DNA of 64,000 nucleotides from Terriglobia bacterium (GTDB lineage Bacteria; Acidobacteriota; Terriglobia; Terriglobales; Acidobacteriaceae). Made by a program: the position numbers and the translations under genes. The notes below the pieces were generated by a model, which was not told the origin of the DNA, ran no database searches, and saw only the letters and a list, made by a program, of their open reading frames with translations. Positions 51,901 through 64,000 of this stretch are shown here, in pieces. The stretch covers positions 116,345 through 180,344 of the forward strand of contig JAIQFC010000007.1 of assembly GCA_020073465.1 (NCBI GenBank), read 5' to 3'. Numbering within the stretch: position 1 is the stretch's first letter; each line of letters opens with the position of its first letter.

Positions 51901-51909
51901 GGTGAGCCT

Positions 51910-52014
51910 CAGTGGTCAGTGGCCAGTGGTCAATGGCCAGTCTCGAAATATTGGGGTCAGCGGCTAGCGGCGTCTTCTGTTTTCTGACCACTGCCCACTA
52001 GCCACTGACCACTG
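51910..52014. repeat. Heptamer-word hairpin (CAGTGGT/CAGTGGC family)
   Basis: cagtggtcagtggccagtggtcaatggccagt ... tgaccactgcccactagccactgaccactg. About 24 of 27 arm positions are complementary. Confidence 0.75.
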
Positions 52015-52018
52015 CTCT

Positions 52019-53056
52019 CTACAGCTGGTCGTCCGGGCCGTACGCTGACGCCGGCAGCGGCACGTTCGAAGTCGGTCCAGGCACGGCGTTGCCGTGCTCG
52101 TCGATCTTCATGCCCAGGCTCAAGCCCATCGAGGAAAGGATCTCCTTGATCTCGTTCAGCGACTTGCGGCCGAAGTTCTTGGTCTTGAGCATTTCCGCTT
52201 CGGTCTTCTGCACGAGCTCGCCGATGGTCTGGATATTCGCGTTCTTCAGGCAGTTGTAGCTGCGCACAGAAAGCTCGAGCTCTTCCACGGAGCGGTTCAG
52301 GTTCTCGTTGTGAATCTCCGGCTTGCGATCTTCACCCGCCGACGTGCCGGTCTCGATCTCTTCCTCGAAGTTGATGAAGATGTTCATGTGGTCCTTCAGC
52401 AGCTTCGCCGCCAGGCCGATCGAGTCGGCGGGCGTGATGGAGCCGTTGGTCCACACTTCAAGGGTGAGCTTGTCGTAGTCGGTGATCTGCCCGAGACGCG
52501 CGGCCTCGACGGTGTAATTACACTTGCGTACCGGAGAGTGCACCGAGTCAATCGGAATGAATCCGATCCCGAGATCCTCGTCGAAATTCTTGTCGGCGGA
52601 AACGTAACCGCGTCCGCGCTTCAAGCGCATTTCCATATCGAGCTTGCCGCCTTCGCTGACCGTGGCGATGTAGACGTCTTTGTCGAGCACTTCGACGTCG
52701 CCATCGGCCTCAATCATGCCGCTGGTCACAACACCCGGCTGATCGGCCCGCAGGTAGATCGCTTTCGGCGCATCTCCGCTCAGCTTGAATGGAATCTGCT
52801 TCAGGTTCAGGATGATGTCGGTCGCGTCTTCCACCACGCCCGGAATCGACTGGAATTCGTGCAGAACACCTTCGATCTTCACAGCGGTAACGGCCGCGCC
52901 TTCAATCGAGCTCAGAAGCACGCGGCGCAGAGCGTTGCCCACGGTTGTGCCAAAGCCACGCTCAAAAGGCTGCGCCCAGAAGATGCCGTACTTGTCGGTG
53001 AGCGTCGAGGTGTCAACTGCGAGACGTTTCGGTTTCTGAAAACCCTTCCAAAGCAT
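52019..53056 (-). CDS. rpoA: DNA-directed RNA polymerase subunit alpha
   Basis: [35 protein letters not shown]; CTD with [17 protein letters not shown]. Confidence 0.97.
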
Positions 53057-53161
53057 GTGTTTCTCCTTCGGCCGTTTGGCTCAGTGCCGACTCCCTGAAT
53101 CGGTCCGGATTCAGGTCAAGCGTCAGCCCAGGCTGATCTGGCTCGAATAGTGGACCGAGAG

Positions 53162-53264
53162 CATTGAGTAATTGGGAAATTTCGTAATTGGGTAATTTGA
53201 CGCCCAGCCTCATTACCGTTTTGCTTTTCAATTACTCAATTACCAAATTCCCCAATTACTCAAT
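53162..53264. repeat. Heptamer-word hairpin (AATTGGG/AATTGAG family), AT-rich
   Basis: attgagtaattgggaaatttcgtaattgggtaatt ... aattactcaattaccaaattccccaattactcaatt. Confidence 0.7.
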
Positions 53265-53268
53265 TCCG

Positions 53269-53898
53269 CTACTTGCTGTAAAGTTCAACAATCAGCTGCT
53301 CATTCACTGGCAGCTGAATATCTTCGCGCTTGGGCAACGAGAGTACCCGCGCCTTGTAATTATCGCGGTCAACTTCCAGCCAGTTGGGCAGCGTGCCGTG
53401 GCTGGCGTATTCCTTGGCCAGATCGAGCACGGTGAGCTTCTTGCTGTTTTCGCGAATCGAAATCTCCTCGCCCGCGCTCACTTCGTAGGAAGGAATGTTG
53501 ACCTTGCGATTGTCGACAGCGACGTGCCCGTGGCGGACCAACTGCCGCGCCTGGCGCCGCGACTGAGCGAATCCCAGGCGATAGACGACGTTGTCGAGAC
53601 GCCGCTCAAGCTGTTGCAGCAAACGCTCGCCGGTCACGCCCTTCGCGCGCGCAGCCTTCTCAAAGTAGTTGCGGAACTGGCCTTCCTGCGTGAAGTAGAT
53701 GCGCTTCGCTTTCTGCTTCTCGCGCAACTGCAGGCCGTAGCCGACGATCTTGGCCTTGCGGTCTTTTCCGTGTTGTCCGGGAGCGAAGTTGCGCTTCTCG
53801 ATAGGACACTTATCGCTGAAGCACTTTGCGCCTTTGAGGAACAGCTTCATGCCCTCGCGGCGGCATAGACGGCATACTGCATCTTTGTAACGCGCCAT
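53269..53898 (-). CDS. rpsD: 30S ribosomal protein S4
   Basis: [26 protein letters not shown]... Confidence 0.96.
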
Positions 53899-53959
53899 GT
53901 TTCTCCTTCAAATAAACCGGTTTACGGGACTGGCTTCCCTTCCTCCCGGTTGAAATCGA

Positions 53960-54022
53960 GCTCTTAGCTTCTAGCTGCTAGCTTCTAGCCCATCCGATCA
54001 GGTTTAGCTAGGAGCTAGAAGC
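53960..54022. repeat. Heptamer-word hairpin (GCTAGAA/GCTAGGA family)
   Basis: gctcttagcttctagctgctagcttctagcc ... agctaggagctagaagc. Confidence 0.7.
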
Positions 54023-54031
54023 GGTGTTCTC

Positions 54032-61864: not shown

Positions 61865-62494
61865 TTATGCCCGGAACGGCATGCCCAAGTGCTTCAACAG
61901 CGTCCGCGCCTGGTTGTCATTCGCGGCCGTGGTCACAATCGTGACGTTCATTCCCTTCAGCTTGTCGACCTTCGCATAATCGATCTCGGGGAAAATCAAC
62001 TGATCGTGCAGCCCCAGCGTGTAGTTGCCACGCCCGTCGAACGACTTGGTCGAAACACCACGGAAGTCGCGCACGCGCGGCAGAACAATGTTCACCAGCC
62101 GGTCGAAGAACTCGTACATGCGGTCGCCGCGCAGGGTGACCATTGCGCCAATCGCTTGTCCTTCGCGCACCTTGAACGCCGCGATCGACTTCTTCGCCCG
62201 CGTAACCACCGGCTTCTGCCCGGTGATCTGGCCCAGTTCGTTCACCGCCGGATCCAGCACCTTGGCGTTCTGCGTGGCTTCGCCCACACCCATGTTCACT
62301 ACGATCTTGTGCAGCCGTGGAACCGCCATCTTGTTCTGCAGTTCCAGTTCCTTCAGCAGGGCCGGCGCCACTTCCTTCTCAAATCTCGAGCGCAGCCGCG
62401 GACGTTCTTTCGCGCTGTGCCGGGCCTTCTCCGGCCCTTTCTGCTCCTGCGGCGCTTCCTTCTGTGCCTTCTTGTCTTTTGCCATCGTCGTCAA
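61865..62494 (-). CDS. rplE: 50S ribosomal protein L5 (with about 30 aa lysine-rich N-terminal extension)
   Basis: [42 protein letters not shown]... Confidence 0.95.
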
Positions 62495-62520
62495 CTTCCT
62501 CTCACGGTTTCGGAGTGTCG

Positions 62521-62633
62521 GCTCTTGGCTCTTGGCCTTTAGCTCAACGTGTACCGGTTCGTGAGACTCATTTTTTCATTCCGCTGCTTGCATGATCGCC
62601 ACAAGCTAAGAGCTAATGGCTAAGAGCTAACAG
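62521..62633. repeat. Heptamer-word hairpin (GCCAAGA/GCTAAGA family) with a long loop
   Basis: gctcttggctcttggcctttagctc ... agctaagagctaatggctaagagctaacagc. Confidence 0.7.
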
Positions 62634-62975
62634 CTATTTATCCAGCGTGGTGTCGCACTTCTTGCACACGCGCACCTTGCGGTCCCCGCGCACTTCATGA
62701 CCGATACGCACCGGCCCGCAGGTCGGACACACCAGCTGCACGTTCGAGAGCGCAATCCGGCTCTCCTGCTCCGCGATTCCGCCCTTGATGTTGCGCTGCG
62801 GGTTGGGACGCACGTGCTTCTTCACCATCATCACGTGCTCCACCAGAATCTTGTTGTCGCCCGGAAACACGCGCAGCACGCGTCCTTCCTTGCCCTTGTC
62901 TCGCCCAGTGATCACCTTCACGGTGTCATTGCGGCGGATGTCCACTCGCTTGTGTGCAGTCGTTGCAGTTGCCAT
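62634..62975 (-). CDS. rplX: 50S ribosomal protein L24
   Basis: IRRNDTVKVITGRDKGKEGRVLRVFPGDNKILVEHV. Confidence 0.95.
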   Translation of the reverse strand: MATATTAHKRVDIRRNDTVKVITGRDKGKEGRVLRVFPGDNKILVEHVMMVKKHVRPNPQRNIKGGIAEQESRIALSNVQLVCPTCGPVRIGHEVRGDRKVRVCKKCDTTLDK

Positions 62976-62986
62976 AAGAATTCGCC

Positions 62987-63358
62987 TTACAGAACTTCCG
63001 GTGCCAGTGAAACAATCTTCAGGAACTTCTTTTCACGCAACTCACGGGCGACCGGACCGAAAACGCGCGTTCCCACCGGCTCGCCCGCCTCGTTGATCAG
63101 CACCGCCGCGTTCTGATCGAACCGGATGTAAGTGCCGTCGCGCCGGCGATGCTCCTTGCGCGTCCGCACAATCACGGCCTTGACTACCTTTCCCTTCTGC
63201 ACCTGTCCTTCCGGCGCAGCTTCCTTCACCGAAGCCGTGATCACGTCGCCCAGGCCGGCATTCAACCCAGTCGAGCCCCCCAGCGGCAGAATCATCTGCA
63301 GCTTGCGGGCACCGGAGTTGTCGGCGACCTCCAGCATCGATCTCATCATCACAGCCAT
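62987..63358 (-). CDS. rplN: 50S ribosomal protein L14
   Basis: [16 protein letters not shown]...[30 protein letters not shown]. Confidence 0.96.
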
Positions 63359-63387
63359 GGCGTCAATCTCCTCTATCTCGGCTCCAG

Positions 63388-63702
63388 CTAGTTGACGGCG
63401 GGTTCGACCGCGGCCTCAGGCACCAGCGCCGCCTTGCGGATAATATCCTTCAGCTTCCAGCGCTTCAGCTTCGAAAGCGGACGAGTTTCTTCGATCCGCA
63501 CGAAGTCGCCCACATGCGCCTCGTTCTTCTCATCGTGCGCGTAGAACTTCTTGTGCCGCGCAATCACGCGCCCGTAGAACGGATGCGATTTCTTGCGTGT
63601 CACCTGCACCACAATCGTCTTGTGCATGCGGCTGGAGACTACTTCTCCCACGACTTCTTTGCGGCGTCCCTGCACGTGTTCAGTTGGCGTTGTTCCAGCC
63701 AT
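63388..63702 (-). CDS. rpsQ: 30S ribosomal protein S17
   Basis: [42 protein letters not shown]. Confidence 0.95.
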
Positions 63703-63911
63703 TATCGTTTCTCCGTTGCCGCGGCCCGCCCGCGCTCACCCAGAATCGTTTTGACCCGCGCGATGTCCTTGCGTAGCCCGCGCATCTTCTTCAGGCTCTC
63801 CGTCTGCCCCATGTTCAGCTGGAACTTCAGCTTGAAGAGTTGGTCAGCCAGATCGCGCTCCTGGTGTTGGAGTTCGGCGTCCGTTAAGTTGCGAATCTTG
63901 TCCGATTTCAT
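63702..63911 (-). CDS. rpmC: 50S ribosomal protein L29
   Basis: IRNLTDAELQHQERDLADQLFKLKFQLNMGQTESLKKMRGLRKDIARVKTIL. Confidence 0.93.
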   Translation of the reverse strand: MKSDKIRNLTDAELQHQERDLADQLFKLKFQLNMGQTESLKKMRGLRKDIARVKTILGERGRAAATEKR

Positions 63912-63932
63912 AATGCAGTTCTCAGTTCCCGG

Positions 63933-64000
63933 TTATCCGTGCATCACTTCGCGCTTGACCATCGTCGTGCGCAGCGGCAGCTTGTGCGAAGCCAGCCGCA
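63933..64000 (-). CDS. rplP: 50S ribosomal protein L16, C-terminal end only (gene starts beyond the window)
   Basis: My translation of the minus strand is ...AASHKLPLRTTMVKREVMHG-stop (TAA at 63935..63933), in the position upstream of rpmC. Confidence 0.8.
   Translation of the reverse strand, partial: RLASHKLPLRTTMVKREVMHG

Follow-up and report, generated by a model that had tools for sequence, protein, structure and literature searches.

The window analysed here is a stretch of 64,000 nucleotides from a soil Terriglobales acidobacterium (Acidobacteriota; contig JAIQFC010000007.1), and its subject is a set of short inverted elements, with arms built of tandem heptamers, that occupy the spacers of a ribosomal-protein gene cluster near its end. 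Pfam agrees with the gene identities given by a first-pass annotation of this DNA, and the cluster runs in the order L29, L24, L5, S14, S8, L6, L18, S5, L30, L15, SecY, Adk, Map, IF-1, L36, S13, S11, S4, RpoA and L17, all on the minus strand. The RpoA encoded at 52019-53056 (minus strand) shares 89-99% identity with its counterparts in 80 related metagenome-assembled genomes labelled Terriglobales, Acidobacteriaceae or Candidatus Sulfotelmatobacter. One locus of about 21 kb from each of these Terriglobales (Acidobacteriota) genomes, 1.47 Mb in total, served for comparison (L-numbers below, e.g., L004); the loci come from many independent projects, and some lie on multi-megabase long-read contigs. 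The close pair L081/L082 derives from a search with the S11 protein, which returned at least 120 matches, all at least 84% identical among the matches listed.

The first-pass annotation had described the spacers of this cluster as filled with imperfect hairpins made of heptamer words, and the statistics of the window bear this out. Runs with at least 12 of 14 matches numbered 14 at lag 7 and 0-4 at other lags, except lag 14, a multiple of 7, while 100 dinucleotide-preserving shuffles of the window held a mean of 0.2 period-7 runs and a maximum of 2; the same arrays were reported by Tandem Repeats Finder. With a minimum arm length of 20 nt and a minimum complementarity of 80%, the window contains ten long inverted repeats, eight having period-7 arms, one period-8 arms (53163-53265) and one being an unrelated palindrome (17942-18038). 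The recurrence in relatives that had been put forward as a check for an assembly artefact was found in all 80 related genomes taken together, with 518 period-7 runs and 123 period-8 runs; multiples of 7 aside, every other period gave 31 runs or fewer. Besides, 270 of the 306 long inverted repeats of the relatives (88%) have period-7 or period-8 arms, and the remaining ones belong to two other palindromic families, GTAGAGACG...CGTCTCTAC and TGTCATCCTGAGCG...GGATCT. Inverted pairs of arrays were counted 199 times at period 7 and 38 times at period 8, and none occurred at periods 5, 6, 9 or 10. Orthologous elements are conserved together with their loops among relatives, and, across 11.7 kb with the spacers included, one JGI contig matches one ENA contig at 99.99% identity. 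The inserts are thus real, non-random, hairpin-forming elements with a heptamer architecture, and their presence in 80 species from many projects, on long-read contigs and in the matching JGI and ENA assemblies excludes an assembly artefact.

Whole spacers were folded in the mRNA sense and scored as z against 200 shuffles. The cluster contains the following elements, each junction being written with the upstream gene first.

51907-52015, minus strand: rpoA>rplQ heptamer hairpin, word CAGTGGT/ACCACTG (z -6.25, 0/200 shuffles as good); arms 51910-51940 and 51984-52014, with a 43-nt loop that is conserved in the orthologues of many relatives.
53163-53265, minus strand: rpsD>rpoA octamer hairpin of period 8, ATTGGGTA/TCAATTAC, just past the rpsD stop codon (z -7.98, 0/200).
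53959-54022, minus strand: rpsK>rpsD weak heptamer hairpin of the GCTAGAA family past the rpsK stop codon, with one long and one short arm (z -2.70).
54470-54554, minus strand: rpsM>rpsK heptamer hairpin TTCTCAG...CTGAGAA, filling the spacer (z -10.43, 0/200), with orthologues in 11 other species.
54978-55051, minus strand: rpmJ>rpsM degenerate heptamer hairpin of the GCTAGAA family (z -2.05, weak).
55171-55219, minus strand: infA>rpmJ mostly one-armed array, 4.7 units of TCAGCCG with a one-unit partner (z -2.19, weak).
55449-55532, minus strand: map>infA heptamer hairpin GCTAGAA/GCTAGGA, filling the spacer (z -6.01, 0/200), with orthologues in relatives; the infA Shine-Dalgarno sequence AGGAG lies within its 3' arm.
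59229-59304, minus strand: rpsE>rpmD heptamer hairpin, CAGTGAT/CAGTGGT (z -5.96, 0/200).
59836-59902, minus strand: rplR>rpsE heptamer hairpin, TTGGCTC/GAGCCAA (z -5.16, 0/200).
60951-61082, minus strand: rpsH>rplF heptamer hairpin GCTCTTA/AGCCAAG with a 76-nt loop (z -4.49, 0/200).
61610-61636, minus strand: possible decayed GGTCGTT-type arm directly past the rpsN stop codon, as read from the sequence; the orthologous spacers of relatives hold full GGTCGTT hairpins.
62515-62636, minus strand: rplX>rplE pair of opposed heptamer arrays (62515-62543 and 62603-62636; z -2.55, weak), both arms being there, yet unpaired in the minimum-energy fold.
63916-63934, minus strand: rplP>rpmC single run of 2.5 CTGAGAA-type units, not a hairpin (z +0.84).

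Twelve of these spacers had been put forward as hairpins, and most are (z -4.5 to -10.4, with none of 200 shuffles folding as well). The rpsK>rpsD, rpmJ>rpsM, infA>rpmJ and rplX>rplE spacers fold weakly (-2.0 to -2.7), and the rplP>rpmC run, which does not fold, is probably the remnant or the seed of an element. The period of 7 ascribed to the element between rpsD and rpoA has to be corrected to 8, with the unit ATTGGGTA.

The first-pass annotation held that the elements share only their period and no sequence rule. When the consensus units of 218 5' arms from the relatives were aligned by rotation, a rule did emerge: position 1 is A in 80% and G in 19%, position 2 is G in 96%, position 3 is C or T in 95%, position 4 is T, C or G, position 5 is any base, position 6 is T or C in 99% and position 7 is C or T in 95%. 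The 5' arm is therefore (RGYYNYY)n and the 3' arm its complement, (RRNRRCY)n, a pattern type that 9% of random heptamers would fit. The unit logo holds 6.3 bits, compared with 3.4 (maximum 3.6) when letters are shuffled within words, and 4.9 against 3.25 bits when built from the 58 distinct words alone. The order of the arms is also invariant, since in ribosomal spacers with at least two runs the 5' type came first and the 3' type last in 167 cases and the reverse in 0; being inverted, the element reads alike on both strands, and this order is independent of the direction of transcription. Families ATTGTTG and AATTGGGT fit the consensus poorly. A poor fit was also seen in the rpsE>rpmD spacers of L025 and L022, where a one-armed array of five AGTACC(C/T) units contains the palindrome GGTACC.

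Arms carry on average 4.1 and 4.4 units (standard deviation below 1; typical range 3-5), and about one fifth of the elements (19% of hairpins with periodic arms) are built on an 8-nt unit. The paired arm length is 26.1 nt at period 7 and 27.0 nt at period 8, so it is the length of the stem, and not the number of units, that is common to both periods. The median element measures 78 nt, with a non-conserved loop of about 25 nt, and the G+C content of the arms is 0.49 versus 0.58 for the related loci. Consecutive units join as C-T-R-R and, 7 being coprime to 3, stop codons occur in all three frames in 33% of 3' arms, against 14% for 5' arms and 1% for pieces of control spacers. The arms match at 0.864 in register and at 0.788 when shifted by 7, a gap no bigger than the choice of the best register yields. 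A loop motif ('AAAACC') shared across families was not supported by k-mer counts.

With respect to placement, the median distance from the upstream stop codon to the 5' arm is 5 nt (5th-95th percentile -2 to 17), and that from the end of the 3' arm to the following start codon is 15 nt (4 to 107). Where the stop codon is TAG, 41% of the following arrays take its AG as their first two unit positions. A strict periodic hairpin is present in 234 of 1240 spacers of the ribosomal cluster (19%), in 14 of 363 other co-directional spacers (3.9%), in 1 of 133 convergent spacers (0.8%) and in 2 of 109 divergent ones (1.8%); a looser criterion gave 536 spacers with a classifiable array. The variable element takes the stop-proximal part of the spacer, and the conserved segments adjacent to the start codon, including the Shine-Dalgarno sequence, stay intact. 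Such conserved stretches of about 60-100 nt precede rpsH (61486-61560; ...GCTGCTGACAGGTTCTCCGCTGAACGCGGAGCGAACG...GGAGAAGCAAACG), rpsD (53899-53958), rpoA (53057-53150) and adk (about 56991-57090), and the same stretches are found in L019-L025 and L067-L078. They had no match in Rfam and may be autoregulatory leaders for S8, S4 and others.

Outside the ribosomal cluster the window holds these features.

19216-19399, plus strand: heptamer-armed hairpin AGCTCTC.../...GAGAGCT between convergent genes (z -4.79 for spacer 19212-19408), whose 132-nt loop holds a different palindromic repeat.
29962-29995, plus strand: one-armed 5'-type array, four AGCCATC units, right past the stop codon of a DUF6677 gene (z +1.10, no significant fold).
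30200-30226, plus strand: short one-armed array, 2.7 units of TCTTGGT, past a stop codon (z +0.31).
35205-35286, minus strand: AT-rich heptamer hairpin ATTGTTG between an 86-aa open reading frame and a PMT_2 glycosyltransferase gene (z -2.66, weak, for spacer 35199-35290).
37313-37391, minus strand: heptamer hairpin of the CTGAGAA family between infB and a DUF503 gene (z -7.59 for spacer 37311-37395).
41923-41974, minus strand: heptamer hairpin AGGTCTT/CCTAAGA between rimP and nusA (z -4.63 for spacer 41897-41982).
47912-47941, minus strand: one-armed array of the CTGAGAA family between a 165-aa open reading frame and an MFS transporter gene (z -0.93, no significant fold).
51354-51378, minus strand: classical intrinsic terminator past rplQ, a GC-rich stem followed by a T-run, found by the terminator scan.

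Six of these places had already been named as carrying the same architecture: the spacers 37311-37395, 41897-41982 and 19212-19408 do so strongly and 35199-35290 weakly, and the arrays at 29962-29993 and 47891-47943 are one-armed and form no hairpin. The array at 30200-30226 had been missed. Nor do all elements lie inside co-directional operons, as had been stated, because the one at 19216-19399 is flanked by converging genes, 18141-19217 (plus strand) and a stand-alone HNH endonuclease gene at 19406-20011 (minus strand). An 885-aa Ser/Thr kinase with a beta-propeller domain is encoded at 48562-51219 (minus strand).

Comparison of orthologous spacers revealed a rapid turnover. At rpsM>rpsK, different species carry CTGAGAA, CAGTGGT, GCTAGAA, GCCAAGA or GGTCGTT hairpins or hairpins of the 8-mer GGTTTCAA, and in other species a given junction can be just 8-25 nt long. 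The presence/absence polymorphism for which the first-pass annotation proposed to look is strong, the rpmJ>rpsM spacer ranging from 8 to 135 nt among relatives. The same family occupies the same junction in 0.76 of pairs at 92-97% gene identity and in 0.26 at 80-86%, and different junctions within one genome share a family at a frequency of 0.224, against a permutation mean of 0.126 and a maximum of 0.148. Indels between orthologous elements peak at the unit lengths (7 nt, n=30; 8 nt, n=18; compared with n=9 at 6 nt and n=8 at 9 nt), and no such peak was seen in element-free spacers. Moreover, one arm can expand alone, as in the rpmD>rplO spacer of L022, where only the 3' arm has grown, to four copies of the 16-nt double unit TTGAAACCTTGGGACG.

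In L081 and L082 (96.8% gene identity), the closest pair among the loci, about 8 of 19 junctions carry entirely different elements, and at other junctions the length of the 3' arm differs by +7 or +14 nt. One element is present, arms and loop together, at map>infA in both loci and also at rpoA>rplQ in L081 (loop identity 0.89), where the copy displaced the 5' half of an older element; L071 has a similar older element, half displaced. This case came from a comparison restricted to families, and a strict-threshold BLAST of loops for paralogous copies found none. Where spacers are filled differently, the whole region from the stop codon to the ribosome-binding site is replaced, without clean ends. 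In the same pair, the adk>map spacer (L081 8080-8150, L082 8070-8170) holds another, roughly 15-nt tandem repeat (GAAGTTAGAG plus 5 nt) with a difference of 30 nt at 97% gene identity.

Other repeats share these spacers. A second palindromic family, non-periodic, TGTCATCC(T/C)GAGCG...GAAGGA(T/C)CT, is found in the same kinds of spacers and can nest in the loop of a heptamer hairpin; its copies in the window lie at 17942-18038, 17443-17489, 19270-19330 (the loop of the 19216-19399 element) and 60277-60405 (rplF>rplR), and in the relatives they lie in many spacers of L004, L019-L025, L081 and L082. A GTAG-headed palindrome, GTAGAGACG(T/C)(A/G)GC...CGTCTCTAC, which looks like the classical GTAG-type REP family, replaces heptamer hairpins at the same junctions of the relatives' ribosomal spacers (L004 4046-4100 and 8965-9029; L012 8964-9082; L014 4030-4114; L026 1974-2054; L045 2295-2352; L071 4053-4102; L073 9017-9104; L076 9754-9835). 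Additionally, in the map>infA spacers of L009, L029 and L039 (190-223 nt) the first 33 nt of infA are duplicated (ATGAG(C/T)AAAGA(A/G)GACGCGATTGAAGTTGAGGCG), followed by an element GGGAGCCCGC...CCCGAGCG...GAGGGATCTC and then by the real infA start, an arrangement that looks like an insertion with a long target duplication.

Signals of function at the RNA level were scarce. Mismatches in the stems, read in the mRNA sense, comprise 216 of the G-U type and 187 of the A-C type (p = 0.16), which gives no strand-specific signal, and among 12 orthologous rpsM>rpsK elements a compensatory change was found in just 1 of 24 consensus pairs; pairing is preserved through conservation of the words and not through compensation. 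The mean unpaired probability of the Shine-Dalgarno window (-14 to -5) is 0.45 with an element and 0.50 without, so that a general sequestration of this site, as in a translational coupling switch, is rejected and the suggested role in translational insulation is unsupported in this form. Occlusion is confined to the 23% of elements whose distance to the start codon is below 10 nt, such as that at map>infA in the window. In a terminator scan of the window no heptamer hairpin met even a lax pattern, while the site past rplQ did; this site is the real end of the operon and stands in contrast to the heptamer hairpins. U-tracts are absent from the elements and, with no terminator features, they would be transcribed through, in line with the earlier proposal that they exist as RNA hairpins. 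At the Rfam gathering score only two tRNAs matched in the window, which has two tRNA genes (8519-8590, minus strand; 28081-28152, plus strand), and E-values up to 1 added only eukaryotic microRNA-precursor models and one sok antitoxin model, all far below gathering. The microRNA-type matches fall on both strands, as they would for any generic long hairpin. No match to a known REP, BIME, MITE or Rfam family was found.

We judge the elements to belong to a known, still unexplained kind of repeat, the STRR type, in a new phylum. The use of STRRs in fingerprinting is decades old, and we know of no mechanism that has been established for them. They serve the fingerprinting of cyanobacteria (e.g., PMC5088731), and the view that no family with a heptamer rule had been described must be given up in light of STRR hairpins (PMC2670836), TAACTGA repeats (PMC4679880) and the inverted array pairs of Xanthomonas (PMC4692102). 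The STRRs of filamentous cyanobacteria are 'usually made up of 7 bp repeats' and form hairpins between hupS and hupL in four strains, for which raised transcript stability or translational coupling has been suggested (Devine et al., PMC2670836). Like them, the Terriglobales elements are intergenic, consist of tandem 7-bp units and can form hairpins between co-transcribed genes. The Nostoc 7120 repeats ttgtcagttgtcag, ttgttagttgttag and ccactgactactgac, and ttgtcagttgtcagttgtca with 44 genome copies (PMC2408588, Table 3), supply words that fit RGYYNYY and its complement in the same order and match the AGTTGTC and CAGTGGT families found here. The logo likewise covers AGTTGTC, AGTGGTC and AGTTATC, in keeping with the published class of CAGT/CAGY heptamers (TTGTCAG, CCACTGA, TAACTGA). 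The 50 kb of Nostoc plasmid that were scanned contained few arrays; one array, lying immediately before a start codon, conforms to the rule. The host, an acidobacterium instead of a heterocystous or filamentous cyanobacterium, is a taxonomic and not a mechanistic difference; in Terriglobales the arrays are as a rule inverted into hairpins of about four units per arm, 8-nt versions coexist with 7-nt ones, and most spc/alpha ribosomal junctions are occupied.

Direct TAACTGA repeats lie inside ribosomal operons of marine Beggiatoaceae and also occur in cyanobacteria and Bacteroidetes, in sets of 2-6 copies directly upstream of start codons, and a single word accounts for the 169 direct sets and the one inverted repeat of the Guaymas genome (MacGregor, 2015, PMC4679880). 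The word follows the 3'-type rule RRNRRCT, and its complement TCAGTTA is used as a tandem unit in Terriglobales (exact tandems three times; L067, L075). Unlike the TAACTGA sets, the Terriglobales arrays come as inverted pairs built from many different words, with the stop codon upstream as their anchor. Xanthomonas genomes contain 70-75 closely spaced intergenic inverted pairs of GGGAATC arrays capable of forming stem-loops, which vary in length and sequence between close species and keep the repeat type (Rehm et al., 2015, PMC4692102). Both systems consist of inverted heptamer-array pairs in intergenic DNA, whereas GGGAATC is a single G-rich, quadruplex-forming word that departs from RGYYNYY, with no reported link to ribosomal operons. 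Heptamers are the commonest period of prokaryotic intergenic tandem repeats, with 'no clear clue' to their function (Mori et al., 2019, PMC6344855), and long simple sequence repeats with units of 5-11 nt show an intergenic heptamer excess (Mrazek, 2007, as related in PMC4679880). Gain and loss of whole units by slippage, with the indel peaks at 7 and 8 nt, are shared with such repeats; the surveys cover direct arrays, and palindromy, consensus, arm order and stem length are not described in them.

The elements also resemble REP/BIME sequences and MITEs in being abundant, small, palindromic intergenic repeats with species-specific families, lying within operons, of a kind that can stabilise upstream mRNA. 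They differ from REP/BIME in having arms of 7- or 8-mer arrays, about 26 nt long in a total of about 78 nt, and no GTAG/CGTC head, the GTAG-headed repeats described above being a separate, non-periodic family that shares the spacers. They differ from MITEs in that loops are not shared between copies of the same family (0.54; one exception at 0.89). Terminal repeats or target duplications were not seen in the spacers compared, where replaced regions have no clean ends. RAYTs exist in acidobacteria (PMC3733652). A literature search yielded no description of such elements in Acidobacteria, which is weak evidence since few subscription journals were covered.

Taken together, these comparisons demonstrate a population of palindromic heptamer and octamer elements that extends through the clade, shares a unit consensus and keeps its polarity and stem length fixed. 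They demonstrate in part that the elements undergo unit slippage, rapid wholesale turnover and occasional copying within genomes. Among the behaviours initially proposed, that of a non-autonomous copying repeat family has the most support, from the sharing of families within genomes, the turnover and the one copied element. We therefore lean, with moderate confidence, towards STRR-type palindromic heptamer repeats, a repeat population tolerated in spacers with a generic effect on mRNA, if any. Replication slippage would add whole units to the arms or remove them, entire elements would be replaced or copied between spacers much faster than genes diverge, and word families would expand in particular genomes. 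Their persistence may reflect a compact stem of about 26 bp without a U-tract, which leaves the next ribosome-binding site free and could be tolerated between that site and the preceding stop codon in co-transcribed genes. On the mRNA they would be read-through stem-loops directly past each cistron, and their likeliest molecular effect would be a generic one, a block to 3'-to-5' exonucleases or an RNase III-type entry point that punctuates the long ribosomal mRNAs; a specific regulatory switch is less likely.

Several observations weigh against this reading. Ribosomal-protein spacers are enriched about five-fold over other co-directional spacers and two further elements of the window sit in the rimP-nusA-infB operon, a preference for translation operons that selfishness or neutrality alone would not obviously produce. 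The CTGAGAA element at rpsM>rpsK is 0.80 (5') and 0.90 (3') identical in its arms across 12 species, compared with 0.55 in the loop and 0.57 at four-fold sites of the neighbouring genes; the surplus conservation of the 3' arm is confined to junctions where this arm abuts the start codon (rpsM>rpsK, 0.88 vs 0.80). Copies of the same family within a genome mostly have unrelated loops (mean identity 0.54), so that whole-element copying is not the sole route of spread, and the loci examined showed neither a transposase nor a target-site duplication nor a defined end of an element. Moreover, the narrow range of stem length and the invariant arm order look like constraint and not drift.

Much of this would suit elements selected as RNA, that is, RNase III-type processing sites or 3'-exonuclease barriers that tune the stability of cistrons, or structures that preserve translational coupling by bringing stop and start codons close. 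We regard this explanation as unlikely on balance. The ribosomal enrichment and the presence in the nusA-infB operon count for it, as do the uniform stems of about 26 bp in both unit sizes, sufficient for a double-strand RNase, the conservation of arms well beyond four-fold sites and loops, with the start-abutting 3' arm more conserved than the 5' arm, and the onset of the hairpin about 5 nt past the stop codon. In E. coli, RNase III sites are present in the metY-nusA-infB and rplL-rpoB transcripts. The proposals made for cyanobacterial STRR hairpins (PMC2670836) point the same way. However, G-U mismatches are not in excess over A-C mismatches, compensatory changes are almost nil, the Shine-Dalgarno region is generally not sequestered, and unrelated hairpin families substitute for each other at one junction; since many species have spacers of 8-25 nt there, no single hairpin is needed.

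An improbable alternative is that the arms are binding arrays for a trans-acting factor that would read single strands in 7-nt steps, such as a cold-shock-domain protein or S1, which would hold the pyrimidine-rich (AGYYNYY)n 5' arm open, switch the hairpin and so coordinate the operons of the translation apparatus. The degenerate but real consensus, with a nearly invariant AG and Y at four positions, the invariant arm order and the roughly four units per arm would agree with it. So would the same words in cyanobacteria, Beggiatoaceae and Bacteroidetes (PMC4679880, PMC2408588), the Nostoc plasmid array GATGACT/GATAACT, which follows the 3'-type rule just upstream of a start codon, and the binding of Bacillus CspB to heptamer repeats at one protein per heptamer (according to the review given within PMC4679880). 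Nevertheless, the 8-nt variants are unfit for a strict 7-nt footprint, the ATTGTTG and AATTGGGT families fit the consensus poorly, and turnover and presence/absence polymorphism speak against a fixed regulon. Just as doubtful is the wider proposal that one conserved reader (a cold-shock-domain protein, S1 or the ribosome) lies behind the rule shared by Terriglobales, cyanobacterial STRRs and TAACTGA repeats; if it were true, intergenic heptamers would be a cross-phylum post-transcriptional signal and not a by-product of slippage.

Intrinsic terminators or attenuators that lower transcription stepwise along the operon are very unlikely: the stem-loops past stop codons are stable and 3-4 T follow the 3' arm in some relatives, but no element of the window meets the lax pattern that the rplQ terminator meets, the stems have about 49% G+C, below the 58% of the related loci, and convergent gene pairs, between which one would expect terminators, seldom have such hairpins. 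Chance or an assembly artefact, for which the metagenome-assembled origin of all sequences is the sole point, can practically be discarded given the 14 runs against 0.2 in shuffles and the retention of elements and loops across independent assemblies.

If the elements are tolerated repeats, as we favour, the value of these findings is descriptive. Unlike the cyanobacterial cases, the Terriglobales clade, with more than 80 species to compare, provides orthologous elements by the hundred that can be dated, and these lie in the gene cluster that is best conserved in the genome. Testable rules are gained in the consensus, the fixed order of the arms, the stem of about 26 bp that is independent of unit size, the anchoring at the stop codon and the free ribosome-binding site, together with the finding that, between genomes with 97% identical genes, about 40% of junctions have had their element replaced. 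Overall, our results reveal that ribosomal-protein operons, usually deemed compact and translationally coupled, can hold structured spacers of about 100 nt at most of their junctions, which is relevant to gene calling, operon prediction and models of ribosomal-protein autoregulation in Acidobacteria.

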